Shown one piece after another: positions 6,254 to 54,358 of a stretch of DNA of 64,000 bases (positions are counted from its first letter, which is position 1; each line of letters begins with the position of its first letter). Position numbers and translations under genes: made by a program. The stretch comes from an uncultured Mycoplasmatota bacterium (lineage in GTDB: Bacteria; Bacillota_I; Bacilli_A; RF39; UBA660): the NCBI GenBank assembly GCA_946490195.1, contig CAMLWN010000001.1, forward strand, positions 238 to 64,237, read 5' to 3'. The notes beneath the pieces are model-generated. The model was not told the origin of the DNA and did not search any database. It saw nothing but the letters and a program-made list of their open reading frames with translations.

Positions 6254-6492
6254 TGAACGAAGAAGAATTTGAAATAATAGGGATGGATGATAAAGAATAC
6301 GTTATTTTAAAAAAAATTAATTTGAATGATAAAAACTATTTTTTATTAAATGAGATAGAAAATGATACACTAACAGAAAATACACTTGTATTAGAGGAAA
6401 AGGATGGATTTTTGAATAGTGTTGAAGATGAAAAAGAAAAAGTAGAACTAACAAAATATATTTTAAGCGAAATAAAAAGTGTAGAAGAATAA
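6253..6492 (+). CDS. small acidic hypothetical protein
   Basis: ORF translationally coupled to the previous gene (ATGA overlap). Confidence 0.35.
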   Translation: MNEEEFEIIGMDDKEYVILKKINLNDKNYFLLNEIENDTLTENTLVLEEKDGFLNSVEDEKEKVELTKYILSEIKSVEE

Positions 6493-6511
6493 AACTTCTA
6501 CGCTTTTTATA

Positions 6512-7408
6512 TTATTCACAATTATATAAACGATAGAGTGTGATAGAAGGAATATTAAAAAAACGAAAACTAAGATTTTCTGTACCAATACCATTAGAAA
6601 CGTACATTGTAGAATTTCCATTTTCAAATTTTCCAACCTCATAATCACCAACGTTATCTTTTTTTACTAATCCTCCAACAAAAGGAATACGTACCAATTC
6701 TCCTAGAGAATGTCCAGCCAAAACTAAATTTGTTTTTGATTGTACTTGTTTCCAAATAATAGGTTCATGAGTAAGTAAAATTTGAAAAAAATTTCCATCA
6801 ACTTCTTTAGTAAAAGCTTTAGTAAAGTCTTGTCCTCCCTGGGTTACAGAAGGAATTCCACTAAGATAAATAGGTGTAGTATCCTTATAATAAATAGGAA
6901 CATTTAAATTATCTAAAATGGTAAAACCAGCTGCCTGCATAATTTCTTCAAATTTATCAATATGTAAATAATCGCTGTCTCCACGAATCGCATATTTACC
7001 GATAGTCGCGGTAGTTTTACTCAATTCTTCTTTTAAAAAGTTAACATTATCTTCGGAGAGATTAATATAAGAATCAAATAAGTCACCAGTAAAAACAAGT
7101 AAATCAGGTTTAGCAATATTAATTTCTTGAACAACTTTTGTTACTTCAACTTCGTTAGTGGTTCTTCCAAAATGAATATCTGAAAATTGAACAATTTTAA
7201 ATCCATTAAATGAATCAGGTAGAGAAGGATCTACAATAGCAACTTCATGAGTAATGCAAAGTTTAGGTTCAATAAAATACATATAAGAAATCAAAAGAAG
7301 AATAAAAATAAGTAAAATGAAAAAAAACTTAGCAAAAAATCCAAATTTTTTTTTCTCTTCGTTAATAACAACTTCTTCTTCCATACTATACTCCAAAAAT
7401 AACGACAA
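6512..7408 (-). CDS. membrane-anchored metallophosphoesterase (calcineurin-like, YkuE-type)
   Basis: QFSDIHFG, FTGDLFD, GDSDY and LAGHSLGE metal-binding motifs after an N-terminal TM. Confidence 0.75.
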   Translation of the reverse strand: MSLFLEYSMEEEVVINEEKKKFGFFAKFFFILLIFILLLISYMYFIEPKLCITHEVAIVDPSLPDSFNGFKIVQFSDIHFGRTTNEVEVTKVVQEINIAKPDLLVFTGDLFDSYINLSEDNVNFLKEELSKTTATIGKYAIRGDSDYLHIDKFEEIMQAAGFTILDNLNVPIYYKDTTPIYLSGIPSVTQGGQDFTKAFTKEVDGNFFQILLTHEPIIWKQVQSKTNLVLAGHSLGELVRIPFVGGLVKKDNVGDYEVGKFENGNSTMYVSNGIGTENLSFRFFNIPSITLYRLYNCE

Positions 7409-8078
7409 TTACAGATAATGTATTATGAATAATATGTGCAAAAGTACTGGTAAAAATATTGTTGGTTTGAAGATAGGCTTTTGCAAAAAAATATCCAAAA
7501 CCAGCATAGGGAATAATAAATAAAAGTTGTGTCCACTCAAAATGAGTCGGATCAAATGCTGCAAGCAAATGAGCTGCACCAAATAATAAAGAACTAAAAA
7601 TCAAGAAAAACTTGTCATTAGAAAATGCTTCTTTAAAACCTTTTCTAAATAATATTTCTTCCAAAAAAGGTCCTAAAATAGACATGGATAAAATAGCAAA
7701 GATAGGAGAGGCATCAATAATCAACCGATTGCCTTCTTCATTTGCAGCAATTCCACCGGTTAAAGCAATTAAAATTGTATTGGTTAAAAGCATAAAAACT
7801 AAGCCTTGTAACCAATAAGTTATACCAACTTTTCCATAAGAACGGAAGTTTTTCAAAAAATCCTTAAATTCTTTAAAAATAGTTTTTCGATAAACAATAA
7901 GTAAAAGAATAAAACTAATAACATAAACAGACAAATTTAGTGCTATATAGATAATGTCATTAGTAATATCTAAATGAAACGATTGAAAAAGCCTAAGTAA
8001 AACTAAAGGCAAAATGAACATGTAGATAAGAATAAGTACAACACCAATGCATAATTTTTTTAAATTAATGTTTTGCAT
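7386..8078 (-). CDS. CPBP family intramembrane metalloprotease (CAAX protease/Abi)
   Basis: EEILFRKGF and FGAAHL motifs in a polytopic membrane protein. Likely start is MQNINLKK, which has an AGGATG RBS. Confidence 0.75.
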   Translation of the reverse strand: MQNINLKKLCIGVVLILIYMFILPLVLLRLFQSFHLDITNDIIYIALNLSVYVISFILLLIVYRKTIFKEFKDFLKNFRSYGKVGITYWLQGLVFMLLTNTILIALTGGIAANEEGNRLIIDASPIFAILSMSILGPFLEEILFRKGFKEAFSNDKFFLIFSSLLFGAAHLLAAFDPTHFEWTQLLFIIPYAGFGYFFAKAYLQTNNIFTSTFAHIIHNTLSVIVVIFGV

Positions 8079-26584: not shown

Positions 26585-27862
26585 ATGAAACTAGAAAAAT
26601 TTAAACAAAAAGACCCAAAGAAAATAGGCATAACCACATTTACAGTAGTATGTATTCTATTAATCGCTGGCGTATTTTTCTACACTTCATTTGCTTCCTT
26701 TGAAACTCATGACGAATTTAATATCATTGAAGGTACAGTAGGAGACAATGGAGACCTATATTTCTCTTTTTACGTAGATGATGAAATATCAAAGACAATG
26801 CCTCAGAAAGGAGAAGGGTATGTCTTAGATAAAGAAAAAACAAACTGCACCAAAGGAGCAAGTATCGAATTTAATGAAACAGACTGGTCAGTTAAAGTTT
26901 TAAATATGACTGAAACAAGAACAAAATGTACGTTGTATTTCAGAAGACCAACTTTTAGCGATATTATACAAGCATGTAACGATACAGCAGCAAATTGTTT
27001 AAAGGATAATGCCAATCTAAATACAGTAGAGCTTGCTTATGATGAAACAACAGATAATAATCTAAGATATATTGGAGCAAATCCAAATAATTATGTTTTA
27101 CTTAATAATGAATTATGGAGAATCATTGGGGTATTTAATAATATCGATGATGGCACAGAAAATAAAGAGACTAGATTAAAAATCATAAGAGATGAGTCCT
27201 TAGGAGAATACAGTTGGGATTATGATGCGATTGGAAATTACGATAATGATTGGAGTACATCAACGCTTATGAATTTATTAAATTCTGGAGCATATTATAA
27301 TCGAACAACGGGAAGTTATTACAATGGTAGTACAACTGCAACGAACGTTGACTTTAGTTCTAATGGCTTAACAGAAGAAGCAAAGAATATGATAGGAGAT
27401 GCAATATGGAACCTAGGAGGAACAACAAAGTATACAAGTAGTAGTATGGACTAAGCCACTGGTACACATATGAAAGAAACACAGAAGTATATAGTGGAAG
27501 ACCAACAGAGTGGATAGGAAAAATAGGACTTATATATCCAAGTGATTATGGCTATGCAACAAGTGGAGGAAATACAACAGATCGAGAAACATGTCTAAAC
27601 ACTGAACTATATAATTGGGATGATTATGATGATTGTAGAAATAACGACTGGTTATATGATAGCTCTAATGCTCAATGGATACTAACACCTTATTCAAGCG
27701 ATAAGCACAGCATCTTCTATGTATACAATTATGGGAATGTGAATGGCATCGCTGTGAACAGAGCGTCCAGTGTAGTTTTTCCAGCATTATATCTGGTCTC
27801 TAACGTTAAAATAATTAGAGGAGAAGGAACTTCAAGTAATCCATATCAATTAAGTTTATAAA
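26585..27862 (+). pseudogene. frameshifted paralog of the DGR target gene (decayed VR)
   Basis: The first ~330 nt are ~85% identical to 49338... The reading frame breaks near 27440-27480, where small indels occur relative to the intact paralog, and the remainder continues in another frame to 27862. The VR-equivalent region is AT-rich and does not match the TR. Confidence 0.7.
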
Positions 27863-48565: not shown

Positions 48566-49115
48566 GTATGTAAAACACCTAAATTATCCAATAAACATTA
48601 AAAAGAAAGATGTAAAAATGGCCAAATATTTACTCACACAATTTGGTGGGGCAAATGGAGAACTCGCTGCTTCATTGAGATATTTCAGTCAAAAATTTTC
48701 CATGCCAGATGAAAAAGGAAAATCGCTTTTAAATGATATTGCTACCGAAGAATTAGGTCATTGCGAAATGATTTGTACAATGGTTCATCAATTGACCGAA
48801 AATGCAACAATTGAAGAACTAAAAGCAGAAGGCCTAGGTTCGATGTACACTGAACACGGAAAAGGAGTATATCCATCTGATTCATTTGGAAATCCATTTA
48901 CTGTAACTTACTTTGCAGTTACAGGAGATGTATTAGCCGATTTATCAGAAGATATGGCAGCAGAACAAAAAGCAAGAGCAACCTACGAAAACTTAATAAA
49001 TATGACAGATGACCAAGATATAATAGGAATACTACTTTTCTTAAGACAAAGAGAAATCGTTCATTTTAATCGTTTCAAAGAACTATACGACTATTACAAG
49101 AAAAAAGGATATTAA
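48558..49115 (+). CDS. cotJC: spore coat protein CotJC (Mn-catalase-like ferritin fold)
   Basis: MFKYVKHLNYPINI...AKYLLTQFGGANGELAASLRYFSQ aligns with the CotJC N-terminus. Confidence 0.8.
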   Translation: MFKYVKHLNYPINIKKKDVKMAKYLLTQFGGANGELAASLRYFSQKFSMPDEKGKSLLNDIATEELGHCEMICTMVHQLTENATIEELKAEGLGSMYTEHGKGVYPSDSFGNPFTVTYFAVTGDVLADLSEDMAAEQKARATYENLINMTDDQDIIGILLFLRQREIVHFNRFKELYDYYKKKGY

Positions 49116-49276
49116 AGGAAAAAATTTTAATCAAGAATAAGTAAAGAAAATAAAGTACTTATTCTTTTTTATTGAAAAAAAATAGGAAACACGTTACAAT
49201 GTATATAGAAAACTATATAAGGATATAATAAAATTGAAACAAAAAAATAAAAATTTTAAAAAAACACCCACACCCA

Positions 49277-49309
49277 TTGACAAATGGGGGGGGGGTTGTG
49301 TGATATAAT
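49277..49309 (+). promoter_or_regulatory. promoter of the DGR target gene: -35 TTGACA, 21-bp spacer containing G10 (49286..49295), extended -10 TGaTATAAT
   Basis: Consensus hexamers read directly from the sequence. The homopolymeric G tract makes the spacing 21 bp. Loss of 3-4 G would give an optimal 17-18 bp. Confidence 0.55.
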
Positions 49310-49337
49310 AAAAACATAAATAGAAGGGAATAAAAAA

Positions 49338-50603
49338 ATGAAACTAGAAAAATTTAAACAAAGAGATCCAAAGAAAATAGGAATAACGATATTTACCGTA
49401 GTATGTGTATTACTAGTAGCAGGAGTATTTTTCTACACATCATTTGCATCATTTCAAACTCAACAAGAATTTAATATTATTCATGGTACAGTAGGAAGTA
49501 ATGGAGATCTTTACTTTGCATTTTACGTAGACGATGTTATATCAAAGACAATGCCCCAAAAAGGAGAAGGATATGTTTTAGATAAAGAAAAAACAAATTG
49601 TACAAAGGGAGCAAGTGTCGAATTTAATGAAAACGATTGGTCTGTGAAAGTCTTAAACATGACAGAAACAAGAACAAAATGTACATTGTATTTTGAAAAG
49701 GAACCAACAGCAGCAGATACTATTTTAGCTAAAGGAGAAACAGAAGAGTTAGCCTATGATGGTACAGTTGATAACAATTTAAGATATATCGGAGCAAATC
49801 CAAATAATTATGTATCCTTCAATAATGAATTATGGAGAATCATCGGAGTATTTAATAATATAGATGATGGAACAGGAAAAAAAGAAACGAGATTAAAAAT
49901 CATAAGAGATGAACCTATAGGAAAATATAGTTGGGATAATAAAGCAAGTGGTACTGGATCATCTACTTCATCATCTGGAAGTAATGATTGGAGTGATAGT
50001 ACCCTACAAATCGTATTAAATGAAGGAGCATATTGGAATCGAACAAGTGGAGAATGTCCATATGGGCGAAACGGAGCTACAACGTCTTGCAACTTTAGTG
50101 CTACTGGCTTAACAGAAGAAGCAAAATCTATGATAAGTAATGCCAAATGGAACTTAGGAGGAACAGCAAGTTATACAAGTAGTAGTAATGGATTAGCAAG
50201 TCATTGGTACACATATGAAAGAGGCACAACGGTATATAGTGGAAGACCAACAGAATGGATAGGGAAAATAGGATTAATGTATCCAAGTGACTATGGCTAC
50301 GCAACAGCAGGAGGAAGTACAACAAATAGACAAACATGTCTAAATACTGAGTTATACAATTGGAGTGGTTATGATGATTGTTTCAATAACGACTGGTTAT
50401 ACACAGGATCATATCAATGGACCTTAACTCCCTGTTCCAGTTATGCGCACAGCGTGTTCTTTATGTACAGTCGTGGCGGCGTGAACGTGCTCGCTGCGTA
50501 CAGCACGAATGACGCGGTTTCCCCCGCCTTATATCTAAACTCTAACGTTAAAATAAGTGGAGGAGATGGTTCTTCTAGTTCACCGTTTATTTTAAGTCTA
50601 TAG
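49338..50603 (+). CDS. DGR target protein: membrane-anchored surface protein with C-terminal CLec-like variable domain
   Basis: Signal-anchor. The C-terminal VR (50426..50528) matches the TR except at TR adenines. The VR is GC-rich in an AT-rich gene. Confidence 0.85.
   Translation: MKLEKFKQRDPKKIGITIFTVVCVLLVAGVFFYTSFASFQTQQEFNIIHGTVGSNGDLYFAFYVDDVISKTMPQKGEGYVLDKEKTNCTKGASVEFNENDWSVKVLNMTETRTKCTLYFEKEPTAADTILAKGETEELAYDGTVDNNLRYIGANPNNYVSFNNELWRIIGVFNNIDDGTGKKETRLKIIRDEPIGKYSWDNKASGTGSSTSSSGSNDWSDSTLQIVLNEGAYWNRTSGECPYGRNGATTSCNFSATGLTEEAKSMISNAKWNLGGTASYTSSSNGLASHWYTYERGTTVYSGRPTEWIGKIGLMYPSDYGYATAGGSTTNRQTCLNTELYNWSGYDDCFNNDWLYTGSYQWTLTPCSSYAHSVFFMYSRGGVNVLAAYSTNDAVSPALYLNSNVKISGGDGSSSSPFILSL
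50426..50528 (+). repeat. DGR variable repeat (VR)
   Basis: 103-bp gap-free alignment to the TR. Of 22 mismatches, 20 fall on TR adenines. Aligned VR codons include TTT, TAC, CGT, GGC, CTC, GCT, TAC, AGC and GAC. Confidence 0.85.
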
Positions 50604-50621
50604 GATACCTAAAAATGGGGG

Positions 50622-50647
50622 CCCAGCCACGTGTAAAAGTGGCAGGG
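50622..50647 (+). other. GC-rich hairpin downstream of VR (candidate DGR homing-associated stem-loop)
   Basis: cccagccac-gtgtaaaa-gtggcaggg, a 9-bp stem with one mismatch. It is the only GC-rich non-coding stretch in the vicinity. Confidence 0.4.
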
Positions 50648-50741
50648 GAACGACTTCAGTTATCCACATCAAGATCAAGAAATGTAATAATACCTTTGAG
50701 TTTTTCAAAGTTATTATAAGGTAAATCTGTTATATAAAGGG

Positions 50742-50844
50742 AACTCCCAATTCCAGTAATTCGAACAACGTGTTCAATGTGAACAGTAATGGCAACGTGA
50801 ACGTGAACAATGCGAACAACACGAATAACGCGGATTCCCCCGCC
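50742..50844 (+). repeat. DGR template repeat (TR)
   Basis: Non-coding and rich in AAC/AAT triplets in the frame corresponding to the VR. It is 81/103 identical to the VR. Confidence 0.85.
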
Positions 50845-50937
50845 AGTCCTTATTATGATGAGTAAATATAGTTAAGGCTATATTTGAGAGTGAATAAGGC
50901 CAAGATTTGTCTTTGGTTTACAACCTAAATATACAGT

Positions 50938-51363
50938 ATGGATGGAGAGTATACGTACAAACCTATACACCATACTTTTTTAGAAAGGATAGAGTTTACT
51001 GTGAGTAAATATATTAAGCTTAAAAGAAAAGGAAAATTTTATGAAGTAAAACATGAAGATGATTATATTTTATGGTATTTATTAAGATATAAAATTCATA
51101 ATAATAAAGTAGGTTTTCCAGAAAGTTCTTTATTTAAAGTATTAGATATTTTAAAAGAAAATCAAGTAGGATATCGTTTATCTTTAGATGATGATTTAGG
51201 TTATATAAAAAGTACTACAGAAAATAAATATAAAGAAATTTTAGAAAAAGCTAAAAAAGAATGGATAAAAGAGAAAAAAGAAAAAGATTTATTAGAAAAA
51301 ATAAAAAAAGCTAAACAAGAAGATTTAGAAAAAGTTTTAAGTTATATAGAAAGTGTCTTATGA
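50938..51363 (+). CDS. DGR-associated accessory protein of unknown function (basic, helical C-terminus)
   Basis: ORF between the TR and avd. K/E-rich C-terminus. Confidence 0.4.
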   Translation: MDGEYTYKPIHHTFLERIEFTVSKYIKLKRKGKFYEVKHEDDYILWYLLRYKIHNNKVGFPESSLFKVLDILKENQVGYRLSLDDDLGYIKSTTENKYKEILEKAKKEWIKEKKEKDLLEKIKKAKQEDLEKVLSYIESVL

Positions 51364-51680
51364 AAGAAGAATTAAAAATATTTATTGAAGCAAAATCTTT
51401 TTTAGAAAAAATAACAGAATATAGTATCTATTTTTCAAAAAGAGAAAATATTTTTAAAAATAAAATTATGGAAACTAGTTTTTCTTTTTTAGAAAATTTA
51501 TATATTTATAATTATAAAAAAGAAAAGATAGAAATTTTATTTAAAGATGTAGCTATGTTAAATTATTATATAGAGTATGCTTATAAGAAAAGAATCATTT
51601 CTCATAAAATAAATAATGAATTAACTAATAAACTTTCTTTTATTTTAAGACTACTTTATGGTTTAAAAAATGTTTCTTGA
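51360..51680 (+). CDS. avd: accessory variability determinant (Avd)-like four-helix-bundle protein
   Basis: 106 aa, helical and basic. It ends in LSFILRLLYGL, which resembles the bAvd C-terminus (IAEVGRILG). It lies immediately upstream of the RT. Confidence 0.55.
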   Translation: MKEELKIFIEAKSFLEKITEYSIYFSKRENIFKNKIMETSFSFLENLYIYNYKKEKIEILFKDVAMLNYYIEYAYKKRIISHKINNELTNKLSFILRLLYGLKNVS

Positions 51681-51740
51681 ATTGTTACATATTTATAAAA
51701 AGAAATCAGAAAAAATACAAAAAATAAAAGAAAAGTTTAT

Positions 51741-52721
51741 TTGTTTGAAATATATAAAATGAGTTATATAAAAGAAATTGAAAATATTTTAGAAAGTAGT
51801 TATACATATAGTTGTAAATATCAAATCTTTTTAATTTTTGAACCTAAAGTAAGAGTAGTAATGAGTTTACCTATTAAAGATAAAGTATTAAATCATTATG
51901 TTACTAGATATATATTGATACCTAAATTGAAAAAATATTTAGATGAAAGAAATGTCGCGACTAGAAAAGATATGGGAGTAGGGTTAGCTAGAAAACTTTT
52001 TAAAAAATATTTGTGTAAAATGAAAAATAAAAATTTTTATATTTTAAAAATGGATATAGAAAAATACTTTTATCGTATAGATCATGAAGTATTAAAGAGG
52101 TTGTTAAAAGACAAATTAAGCGAAAAAGAATTTACTTTAATAAAAGATATTATAGATAGTACAAACAGGGAATATATTCATAAGAAAATTGAATTTTTAG
52201 AAAAGAAATATGGGATAGAGTTACCTAAATATGAGTATGGAAAAGGGTTACCTATAGGGAATATGACAAGTCAATTTTTAAGTGTTTTTTATTTATATAA
52301 ATTAGATCACAAAATCATCCATGATTATCATTTGAAATACTATATGAAATATATGGATGATTTTGTGATACTTCATGAAAATAAACAGTATTTAGAAAAC
52401 ATATTTTTAAAAATAAAAGAAGAATTAGAAACAGTATATAAATTAAAAATAAATAAAAAGAAAAGTTTAATTGTAAATAGTAAAGAAGGGATTACTTTTT
52501 TAGGAATTCATTATAAAATAAAAAAGAATAAAATAGTTGAGTTTTTACCAAATAAAAAGAAACAAGCAATAAGAAAGAAAATCAAGAAAAATTTTTTTGA
52601 ATTTAAGAATAATATGAAAAATATTGAAAGTTTATTTAGTAGTAGAGAATGCTTTTTACATAGTTATAAAGTGAGTAGAAAGTATATAAAAGAATTAATT
52701 TATGAAATGGAAAAGAATTGA
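51741..52721 (+). CDS. DGR reverse transcriptase
   Basis: RT motifs 1-5 are present: PIKDKVLNHYV, LKMDIEKYFYRIDH, GLPIGNMTSQF (the DGR-specific SQ motif) and YMDDFVIL. Size (326 aa) is similar to the Bordetella phage bRT. Confidence 0.9.
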   Translation: MFEIYKMSYIKEIENILESSYTYSCKYQIFLIFEPKVRVVMSLPIKDKVLNHYVTRYILIPKLKKYLDERNVATRKDMGVGLARKLFKKYLCKMKNKNFYILKMDIEKYFYRIDHEVLKRLLKDKLSEKEFTLIKDIIDSTNREYIHKKIEFLEKKYGIELPKYEYGKGLPIGNMTSQFLSVFYLYKLDHKIIHDYHLKYYMKYMDDFVILHENKQYLENIFLKIKEELETVYKLKINKKKSLIVNSKEGITFLGIHYKIKKNKIVEFLPNKKKQAIRKKIKKNFFEFKNNMKNIESLFSSRECFLHSYKVSRKYIKELIYEMEKN

Positions 52722-52986: not shown

Positions 52987-53850
52987 ATGAATGAAATTGT
53001 AGAAGAATTAAAAATAGAAAAAATGATTTATGAAATAAGAGGAAAACAAGTGATGCTAGATAGTGATTTAGCTAAACTTTATCAAGTAGAAACAAAAAGA
53101 ATAAATGAAGCTGTAAGCAGGAATAAAGAAAAATTTCCTGTTAGATTTAGTTTCACAATTAGTGAGAAAGAATATAATCTTTTGAAGTCGCAAATTGCGA
53201 CTTCAAAAGGAGGCTCGAGAAAAGGTCATAGAGTGTTTACAGAACAAGGAGTAGCAATGCTAGCAACTATTTTAAAATCGAAAATTGCAACAGAAGTAAG
53301 CATTAGAATTATGGATGCCTTTGTAGCTATGAGAAAATATATTGGAAATAACTTGATTGAACAAAGATATATTAATCATTTAGTTATTGAACATGAAGAT
53401 AAGATTAAACTTTTAGAAACCAGTTTTGAAAAATTAGAAACAAAGAAAAATGAAATTTACTTTAATGGACAAATTTATGATGCCTATTCAAAGATTTTAG
53501 ATATATTAAGTGAAGCAAAAGAAGAAATTATAATCATTGATGGCTATGCAGATAAAAGTGTATTAGATATGATACGAAATACAGAAGTGAAAGTAATCTT
53601 AATTATTAAAAACTGTGGGAATTTAAAAGAGCAAGATATTTTAAAATATCAAGAACAATACAATAATTTAAATATTATTTATGATACTTCTTTTCATGAC
53701 AGATATATCATTTTAGATAAAAAAGTATTTTATCATTGTGGAGCTTCATTAAATCATGCTGGAAGTAAAACTTTTTCTATAAATACATTAGAAGATGAAA
53801 TGGTTCAAAAACTTTTAATAGATAAGATAGGAGAATTAGAATATGAATGA
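52987..53850 (+). CDS. ORF6N-domain protein with C-terminal HDRYIILD/ASLNHAG domain (copy A, intact)
   Basis: IRGKQVMLDSDLAKLYQVETKRINEAV...RVFTEQGVAMLATILKS is the ORF6N signature. The C-terminal domain contains FHDRYIILDKK...YHCGASLNHAGSK. Confidence 0.7.
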   Translation: MNEIVEELKIEKMIYEIRGKQVMLDSDLAKLYQVETKRINEAVSRNKEKFPVRFSFTISEKEYNLLKSQIATSKGGSRKGHRVFTEQGVAMLATILKSKIATEVSIRIMDAFVAMRKYIGNNLIEQRYINHLVIEHEDKIKLLETSFEKLETKKNEIYFNGQIYDAYSKILDILSEAKEEIIIIDGYADKSVLDMIRNTEVKVILIIKNCGNLKEQDILKYQEQYNNLNIIYDTSFHDRYIILDKKVFYHCGASLNHAGSKTFSINTLEDEMVQKLLIDKIGELEYE

Positions 53851-54358
53851 AATTGTAGAAGAGTTAAAAATAGAAAAGATGATTTATGAAATAAGAGGAA
53901 AGCAAGTGATGTTAGATAGTGATTTAGCTAAACTTTATCAAGTAGAAACAAAAAGAATAAATGAAGCTGTAAAAAATAATTTAGAAAAATTTCCATCACG
54001 TTTTTGTTTCATCCTAGACCAAGAAGAAATGTTTTTTTTGAAGTCGAAATTTTCGACCTCAAATACAAAGCAACGTGGTGGACGTAGGTATAATATAAGA
54101 GTTTTTACAGAGCAAGGAGTAGCAATGCTAGCAACTATTTTAAAATCCAAAATCGCAACAGAAGTAAGCATTCGAATTATGGATGCCTTTGTAGCTATGA
54201 GAAAATATATTGGAAATAACTTGATTGAACAAAGATATATTAATCATTTAGTTATTGAACATGAAGATAAGATTAAACTTTTAGAAACTAGTTTTGAAAA
54301 ATTAGAAACAAAAAGAATAAATGAAACTGTAAAAAATAATTTAGAAAAATTTCCTTAA
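53843..54358 (+). pseudogene. ORF6N gene copy B, truncated by internal deletion/recombination
   Basis: N-terminal ORF6N domain intact. After LETK the frame jumps back to the N-terminal sequence RINETVKNNLEKFP and stops. Microhomology at the junction is gaaacaaa.agaataaatgaa. Confidence 0.55.

Follow-up and report, generated by a model that had tools for sequence, protein, structure and literature searches.

A length-variable poly-G tract in the spacer of a candidate slippage-tuned promoter ahead of a retroelement-diversified gene in an uncultured Mycoplasmatota bacterium

A 64,000-nucleotide stretch of contig CAMLWN010000001.1 (GenBank assembly GCA_946490195.1, an uncultured Mycoplasmatota bacterium; hereafter, the window) carries a run of ten guanines between the –35 and –10 elements of a sigma-A-type promoter, which we named P2. 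The gene that follows encodes a membrane-anchored protein and is the target of a diversity-generating retroelement (DGR). In a preliminary description, made from the sequence of the window, the G tract had been read as an ON/OFF phase-variation switch stacked on diversification by the DGR. We compared the locus with its relatives and weighed this reading against alternatives. P2 was found to consist of the following parts:

49244–49276, forward strand: A-rich (UP-like) stretch, then the C-rich segment CACCCACACCC, directly 5′ of the –35 hexamer (sequence reading)
49277–49282, forward strand: –35 hexamer TTGACA of the proximal promoter P2 (sequence reading)
49286–49295, forward strand: G10 homopolymer, the length-variable element within the P2 spacer and the sole such run in the window
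49299–49309, forward strand: extended –10 of P2, TGTG-a-TATAAT (TRTGn –16 motif plus consensus –10; sequence reading)
49310–49337, forward strand: short leader with the ribosome-binding site GAAGGGA (49323–49329; sequence reading), conserved across loci

Direct reading of the sequence gave the order TTGACA, AAT, G10, TTGTGTGA and TATAAT (49304–49309), with the two hexamers 21 bp apart and the ATG of the target gene at 49338. A TG dinucleotide (49301–49302, within TGTG at 49299–49302) stands one base 5′ of the –10 hexamer, so that the extended –10 feature is present in the window. Near-consensus sigma-A elements, a G10 tract in the spacer and a spacing of 21 bp, all asserted in the preliminary description, were thus confirmed. 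Transcription from P2 would start near 49316. Between the tract and the ATG lies an in-frame TAA (49317–49319), and the tract is therefore untranslated in the window. The window has a GC content of 29.7%, and G10 is its only run of G or C longer than 5 in 64 kb, while about 0.001 G runs of at least 10 would be expected from composition; the earlier statement that such a run is unlikely by chance is well in agreement with these figures. As a control for spacing, public genome, metagenome and viral collections were scanned for this pair of –35 and –10 words, the length of the gap being left free. A spacer of 16–18 bp was found in 67 of 77 unrelated loci, indicating that the word pair normally forms a canonical promoter and that 21 bp is an outlier. 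The free-gap scans of metagenome and viral sequences returned ordinary promoters only and no further tract loci.

The gene downstream of P2 and the DGR that acts on it are laid out as follows:

49338–50603, forward strand: target gene, an open reading frame (ORF) for a 421-aa protein with an N-terminal membrane anchor, the DGR variable protein
50426–50528, forward strand: DGR variable repeat (VR) at the 3′ end of the target gene (TR/VR comparison)
50742–50844, forward strand: DGR template repeat (TR; TR/VR comparison)
50938–51363, forward strand: 141-aa protein of the DGR cassette, between the TR and the Avd-like gene, with no family match
51360–51680, forward strand: 106-aa Avd-like accessory protein (weak NCBIfam match)
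51741–52721, forward strand: DGR reverse transcriptase (RVT_1, E = 9e-19; PHROG reverse transcriptase, E = 5e-52)

VR and TR differ at 22 of 103 positions, with 20 of the 22 at TR adenines. This bias, together with the reverse transcriptase at 51741–52721, supports the earlier assignment of the gene behind the G tract as a DGR target; the translated reverse transcriptase includes IGNMTSQ, which corresponds to the DGR-type (I/L)GxxxSQ motif. The 106-aa ORF matched the NCBIfam model DivGenRetAVD (NF033474) with E = 6e-4 and 20 bits, against a cut-off of 80 bits. TRs homologous to that of the window are present in two of the related loci listed below, L010 and L086. The diverged cassette of L086 has a 141-aa ORF at the same position (L086 4703–5128) and a 108-aa ORF in place of the Avd-like ORF, and the 141-aa protein is apparently an uncharacterised accessory factor that is conserved in the DGRs of the lineage. 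The arrangement resembles that of known DGRs (BPP-1 Mtd, Treponema TvpA, Legionella LdtA), which share the IGxxxSQ reverse transcriptase, adenine-specific TR/VR substitution, a 3′ VR, a candidate Avd-like gene and, probably, a surface protein with a C-type-lectin fold as target. Protein-based searches of viral contigs, phages and plasmids gave no homologs, so that the cassette is not obviously phage- or plasmid-borne. Exact-protein look-ups of CotJC, the reverse transcriptase (with two alternative starts), the 141-aa protein and P0002 returned no record. Just 3′ of the target stop, between VR and TR, we observed a GC-rich island, ATGGGGGCCCAGCCACGTGTAAAAGTGGCAGGGGAACGAC (50610–50660), with the hairpin GCCAC-N8-GTGGC, which may represent a DGR target-recognition hairpin or cruciform, though it lies about 90 nt from the VR end.

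The target protein belongs to a very large family (>7,900 matches). Its AlphaFold model reached a pLDDT (predicted local distance difference test) of 68 overall and of 39–51 over the VR segment. No sequence similarity to PDB chains was detectable, and the model gave one significant PDB match, the IgA (immunoglobulin A) peptidase of Thomasclavelia ramosa (9qa6, E = 3e-7, 307 columns). The N-terminal domain of that peptidase is an enlarged C-type lectin-like domain (PMC12237041), and the match is probably to this lectin-like N-terminal domain. As judged from the model, the ectodomain of the target protein is probably C-type-lectin-like. This is in line with a variable protein of a DGR and points to a host resembling the Erysipelotrichales.

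For comparison, we assembled nine tract-bearing loci verified at the DNA level, the window among them, from independent assemblies of differing studies and hosts. All sequences were short-read metagenome or metagenome-assembled genome (MAG) assemblies.

Window: G10, 21-bp spacer; cotJ context, DGR downstream
L007: G11, 22-bp spacer; synteny with the window's paralog locus
L010: G11, 22-bp spacer; cotJ plus three inserted genes, VR and TR present
L081: G11, 21-bp spacer; cotJ context, –10 mutated to TGTAAT
L083: G11, 22-bp spacer; short contig
L084: G9, 20-bp spacer; far-upstream sequence different, without the distal promoter P1 (see below)
L087: G11, 21-bp spacer; cotJ context
L086: G10, 21-bp spacer; rpsO-pnp upstream, full DGR downstream, flanks diverged
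L113: G10, 20-bp spacer; GntR and glycosyltransferase (GT2) upstream, flanks unalignable

The hexamer TTGACA was identical in nine of nine loci, across three lineages that cannot be aligned with one another (window type, L086 and L113). At least five chromosomal contexts were represented: cotJ, the paralog locus in L007, rpsO-pnp, GntR–GT2 and a recombinase-adjacent one. Spacers measured 20 bp in two loci, 21 bp in four and 22 bp in three. The extended –10 is conserved in the window-type loci and reads TGTGgTATACT in L086; in L113 the TG abuts TATAAT, leaving no canonical extended –10. The distance from the –10 to the ATG was 25–31 nt in all three lineages. The C-rich segment 5′ of the –35 was kept in window-type loci only and is absent from L086 and L113. 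The preliminary description had proposed a comparison with homologous loci, and the tract proved to be conserved in all nine, with lengths of G9, G10 and G11. Since all three elements (–35 hexamer, tract and –10) have been retained amid diverged surroundings, these comparisons indicate that the tract is kept by selection.

Other assignments of P2 were tried and rejected. An alternative –10, TGTGAT (spacers of 15–17 bp), lacks the essential A at position 2, and L113 has no equivalent hexamer there. By eye, none of the consensus sequences for sigma-B, E, K, H, extracytoplasmic function (ECF) sigma factors or sigma-54 fits P2. A minus-strand promoter based on the palindromic TTGTCA has no usable –10 in the window. 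An Rfam search of 49000–51800 found no known RNA family.

The lengths of the tract differed even between otherwise identical sequences. L083 and L084 agree over 1377 nt 3′ and 37 nt 5′ of the tract (1,414 nt in total), and their only difference is G11 versus G9. The identical stretch covers the whole coding sequence, the VR and eight other homopolymers, all unchanged. On this comparison the G tract is the fastest-changing site at the locus. The break of contig L082 inside the tract may be a hint of length change within a population. A tract that is conserved and yet varies in length between identical flanks bears the marks of a contingency repeat prone to slippage, placed in a promoter spacer. 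The sequences themselves show the anatomy, the conservation across lineages and contexts, the length polymorphism and the DGR; slippage as the cause, an effect on transcription and the length that represents the ON state are inferences.

We thus favour, with a probability of roughly 55%, the reading that transcription of a membrane-anchored, lectin-like surface protein from P2 is tuned by slippage, either as a phase switch or as a "volume" control. P2 would serve a family of such genes in uncultured low-GC Bacilli of the gut, probably Erysipelotrichales-like. Replication slippage would add or remove G's in the P2 spacer, and the tract length would set both the distance and the helical phase between the consensus –35, with its A-rich UP-like flank, and the –10. 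The output of P2 would thereby differ between cell lineages in a heritable yet reversible manner. At G9–11 (20–22 bp) the –35 would be too distant for normal simultaneous contact, so that the common state would probably be low or basal expression from the extended –10 alone, plus P1 where present. Contraction of the tract would then be needed for stronger expression, unless the true optimum lies near 21 bp. In the window, the tract would set the amount of protein and the DGR its binding surface. That the tract sits on a DGR-diversified gene holds for the window, L010 and L086, as the preliminary description had stated for the window; a special link between tract and DGR did not hold up, as L113 has no VR/TR or reverse transcriptase within 4.3 kb and L007, by synteny, also lacks an adjacent DGR. 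In a reconstituted BPP-1 DGR, the strength of the target promoter affected adenine mutagenesis only mildly (PMC12875486), and the tract therefore probably governs expression and not diversification. Our literature search found no published DGR target with a simple-sequence repeat in its promoter.

Promoter tracts of this kind are known from other bacteria. In Neisseria meningitidis porA, a poly-G tract lies between –35 and –10, and expression is high with 11G, 2-fold lower with 10G and 13-fold lower with 9G (PMC3639595). The likeness is close: G9–11 forms most of a sigma-70-type spacer ahead of a major surface protein, alleles have 9, 10 or 11 G's, and expression is graded (PMC3639595). In porA, however, 11G corresponds to the optimal 17 bp and the alleles lie at or just below it, whereas here G9–11 corresponds to 20–22 bp; further differences are the extended –10, the frequent second promoter upstream, the Gram-positive host and the DGR on some copies. 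In Treponema pallidum, tp0126 carries a poly-G between –35 and –10 with an optimum of 17 nt, and in the tpr genes 8G or fewer are permissive while the non-permissive 9G predominates in vivo (PMC7864442). As here, the promoter poly-G tracts of tp0126 and tprE/G/J/L (7–11 G's) precede surface-protein genes and vary in length within and between isolates, and in both organisms ORFs have been mis-annotated to include the tract (PMC7864442). Unlike that of P2, the tpr tract is situated immediately 5′ of the transcription start, and its action involves a CRP-like factor (PMC7864442). In tp0126 the optimum has been shown to be 17 nt, whereas the present alleles lie 2–5 bp beyond canonical spacing. The vlp genes of Mycoplasma hyorhinis are said, after work by Citti and Wise in 1995, to have a poly-A tract in the –35/–10 spacer, with an ON length of 17 bp. 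They would share with P2 a spacer homopolymer, variable surface proteins, a place in the low-GC Bacilli/Mollicutes radiation and promoter-level control on top of a second kind of variation, reportedly Vlp size variation by repeat number where we find a DGR. The vlp tract is reportedly poly-A and not poly-G, and the second mechanism differs.

Several observations weigh against slippage-tuned transcription from P2. A spacer of 16–18 bp occurred in none of the nine alleles (0/9), unlike in porA and tp0126, where the range of natural alleles spans 17 bp. P2 is thus not a proven member of the porA type: the –35/–10 layout and the length polymorphism agree with that type, and the lack of alleles straddling 16–18 bp contradicts it. 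For the same reason, the earlier proposal that loss of 3–4 G's restores a spacing of about 17 bp and turns the promoter ON had no support among the natural alleles. Furthermore, the TRTGn extended –10 may free P2 largely from its –35 and blunt any effect of length, given that extended –10 promoters generally work with a degenerate or absent –35 (PMC6524683). The differences in tract length were read from short-read metagenome assemblies, a kind of data in which homopolymers are prone to error. Finally, a second promoter lies upstream, behind the end of the cotJ operon:

49133–49171, forward strand: intrinsic terminator of the cotJB-cotJC operon, an 11-bp AT-rich stem (49133–43 / 49156–66) followed by a T run (fold)
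49172–49200, forward strand: distal promoter P1, TTGAAA (49172–77), 17 bp, TACAAT (49195–200) (promoter match)

No terminator was predicted between P1 and the target gene, and P1 could therefore transcribe the target whatever the length of the tract. The general independence of extended –10 promoters from the –35 and the presence of P1 together argue against a clean ON/OFF switch as originally described. What remains of the phase-variable tract is that it is real, lies between sigma-A elements, is conserved and ranges from G9 to G11 among relatives, while the ON state proposed for it (G6–G7) was not supported.

The genes cotJB and cotJC (Mn-catalase family; Pfam) precede the target and end at 49115. 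Their terminator folds at –9.6 kcal/mol (z = –2.5), its hairpin is conserved in L010, L081 and L087, and it marks the upstream edge of the promoter region. P1 is the top sigma-70-like match of the region (10/12) and lies about 105 bp upstream of P2. With its 17-bp spacing it is conserved in L007, L010, L081, L083 and L087; L086 has a similar promoter, and L084, L085 and L113 have none. Directly 3′ of the P1 –10 we noted an AT-rich inverted repeat, TATATAG-AAAA-CTATATA (49201–49222), which is conserved in window-type loci and could be a candidate operator controlling P1. The segment of roughly 105 bp between P1 and the leader comprises the A-rich stretch, followed by the –35, the tract and the extended –10; it behaves as an added module, P2.

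Among the alternatives, the one to be taken most seriously, doubtful as we hold it to be, is that P2 belongs to the long-spacer sigma-A promoters and depends on an activator, or is unconventional in some other way, with an optimum of about 21 bp instead of 17. RNA polymerase or a helper protein would bind at TTGACA and the UP region, a factor compensating for the distance would be needed for productive contact with the –10, and G9–11 would represent a mixture of ON and OFF states differing by ±1 bp. The spacers cluster at 21 ± 1 bp over three lineages with differing non-G parts (10–11 nt) and unalignable flanks, a scatter like the one by which alleles of classical systems surround their ON length (PMC3639595). 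That TTGACA is perfectly conserved this far from the –10 would be hard to explain if the hexamer were almost never used, and L113, without a canonical extended –10, would otherwise be nearly dead at 20 bp. Precedents for consensus-like hexamers 19–22 bp apart exist: MerR-type promoters have spacers of 19–20 bp, and in Bacillus subtilis spoIIG the sigma-A-like hexamers are some 22 bp apart and Spo0A~P is needed. In the fim promoters of Bordetella pertussis, a C tract between the BvgA site and the –10 sets the register. Unlike these systems, P2 has a tract that makes up half of its spacer. The spacer length of 20–22 bp would fit the MerR and spoIIG types, but no activator site was found, the best resemblance to a 0A box, by eye, being ATTGACA with five of seven positions of the reversed box TTCGACA, and the spacer is a plain G run without a MerR-type dyad. 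In addition, the small proteins of the DGR cassette have no DNA-binding family match, and some tracts have no DGR beside them. Nine alleles, moreover, are a small sample.

More tentatively, and in our view improbably, this set point could be combined with slippage: P2 would be a poly-G-tuned sigma-A promoter set at about 21 bp, four bp past the canonical optimum, in which slippage by a single G flips the promoter between a poised and a productive state, the whole being a portable module, conserved ahead of lectin-like surface-protein genes of Erysipelotrichales-like gut bacteria and in some copies stacked on a DGR. The consensus –35 and UP region would then keep RNA polymerase, or a helper, misaligned with the –10. 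If this were true, protein display and binding specificity would vary independently in the DGR-stacked copies.

Still less probable is a role of the tract that does not depend on its length, with length variation being incidental. The tract could bind a protein, form a rigid, A-like poly(dG)·poly(dC) segment that insulates P2 from P1, or pair within a hairpin of the P1 transcript. Such transcripts would include the tract; in three lineages a pyrimidine-rich stretch 5′ of it (CACCCACACCC, CUCUUUUCUU and CUUUCC) can pair with the G run, placing the –35 in the loop, and the narrow range of G9–11 could reflect a minimum length requirement. We rejected the hairpin of C-rich arm and G run as the main explanation, because the pairing was no better than in dinucleotide shuffles (z = –0.46, –1.69 and +0.66) and the arms, which are non-homologous and enclose loops of 10–21 nt, are not conserved in L086 or L113. 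L084, L085 and L113 lack P1, so that no P1 transcript would arise there, and the hairpin has neither an Rfam match nor the following U run that would make it a terminator. A length-independent role would also leave the perfectly conserved TTGACA and –10 beside the tract unexplained.

It is very unlikely that the tract or its length differences are artefacts of sequencing or assembly, such as poly-G from two-colour chemistry or homopolymer miscalls. The source assemblies are of the kind in which homopolymers of 9–11 are error-prone, and one contig (L082) begins with a G run, its first base lying inside the tract. Yet in nine independent assemblies the tract is internal, with conserved promoter sequence on both sides, and paralogs in the same kinds of assemblies lack it. 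The difference of 2 nt (G9 versus G11) in otherwise identical sequence also exceeds typical consensus error. An assembly artefact, named in the preliminary description as a finding that would overturn its reading, was thus not borne out. Last, the tract could act on translation, as a frameshift switch inside an ORF with a longer N-terminus. The ORF called for L113 takes the TTG of TTGACA as its start and continues in frame across G10, and P0109, P0144 and P0156 are similarly over-called proteins. This reading is so improbable as to be negligible: the in-frame TAA rules it out for the window, the start MKLEKF and its ribosome-binding site are conserved 25–31 nt after the –10 in all lineages, and the "extensions" are conserved as promoter DNA, not as protein.

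The over-called ORFs are of use in another respect, as P0109, P0144 and P0156 translate the tract as Gly-Gly-Gly and so point to further lineages that carry it. The calls for L113 (1977–3329), P0068, P0109, P0144, P0156 and P0058 start at the –35 TTG or at an ATG followed by the G run, giving database proteins a spurious N-terminal extension that translates the promoter (e.g. MTVGGGV...). P0058, known from the protein alone, has two Gly codons only and might correspond to a short (G6–7) allele. A search of the over-called ORFs for in-frame short alleles yielded few informative proteins.

Three loci differ in the neighbourhood of the tract. L081 (3939–4000) and L082–L084 encode the same 420-aa protein with zero differences in the coding sequence. 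The –10 of L081 reads TGTAAT for TATAAT, thus losing the key A at position 2, and there are three other changes, all in the promoter or leader. With the gene itself unchanged, the mutation looks like one that disables the promoter. In L085, other sequence has taken the place of that 5′ of the tract, so that the –35 is missing, and the G run itself is interrupted (GGGAGGGGGG). About 100 bp 5′ of the target ATG lies the end of a large gene for a serine recombinase (Resolvase/Recombinase/Zn_ribbon_recom/DUF4368; L085 1918–4000), and a mobile element may have integrated at or beside the poly-G tract, locking the promoter. Promoter-disabling changes in L081 and L085 on an unchanged coding sequence would fit with fluctuating selection on expression. 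L010 (1915–4031) has three extra genes between cotJC and the terminator–P1–P2–target block, judged by eye to be two ORFs of the dCTP-deaminase type and one small ORF of the cytidylyltransferase type. The block itself is 91% identical to window positions 49133–49345; promoter module and target therefore move as a unit.

The window also contains a paralog of the target gene (26585–27858), which is split over two frames at about 27445–27454, away from any homopolymer. Its promoter, TTGTAA (26525–30), 17 bp, TACAAT (26548–53), has no tract and aligns with P1, and the earlier account of a frameshifted paralog with an ordinary promoter was accurate. L007 has an intact gene at the syntenic locus (6270–7800; 97.5% identity of the flanking gene), and both P1 and P2 (G11) precede it. 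The window paralog thus looks like a decayed copy that lost the P2 segment of about 105 bp. Paralogs in a ThiI–Ham1 context (L080, L114 and L115) have ordinary promoters and no tract.

A tract-centred viral scan gave 25 matches, all unrelated to the locus. In the low-GC, unrelated IMG/VR contigs L104 (129–146), L109 (8915–8932), L110 (1324–1341) and L112 (1055–1072), the sequence TTGACA-T-G10-TGTTACGA... stands 5′ of a conserved region, which makes it a second case, from phages, of a recurrent poly-G tract beside a hexamer resembling a –35. Just downstream of the DGR of the window lie two tandem ORF6N-domain genes (52987–53850 and 53843–54358), which share about 43 identical N-terminal residues and a long identical internal block; this points to a recent tandem duplication or rearrangement.

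Repeats in promoter spacers are a known kind of switch, and the present case stands apart in that the optimum of 17 bp lies outside the range of its natural alleles. With perfect consensus elements at 20–22 bp, it offers a natural test case for the interplay of spacing, extended –10 and homopolymer structure. The finding also bears on the annotation of a very large protein family, as the tract breaks assemblies and misleads gene callers into placing ORF starts at the –35. For a few pathogens (Neisseria, Haemophilus, Campylobacter, Helicobacter, Treponema and mycoplasmas), phase variation by repeats has been documented well, but there are hardly any descriptions of it from Gram-positive gut commensals. 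If the tract tunes expression, the bacterium would hedge along two axes on one surface lectin, combining a stochastic amount with retroelement-driven binding specificity, which would be relevant to evasion of immunity (IgA), masking of phage receptors and colonisation.

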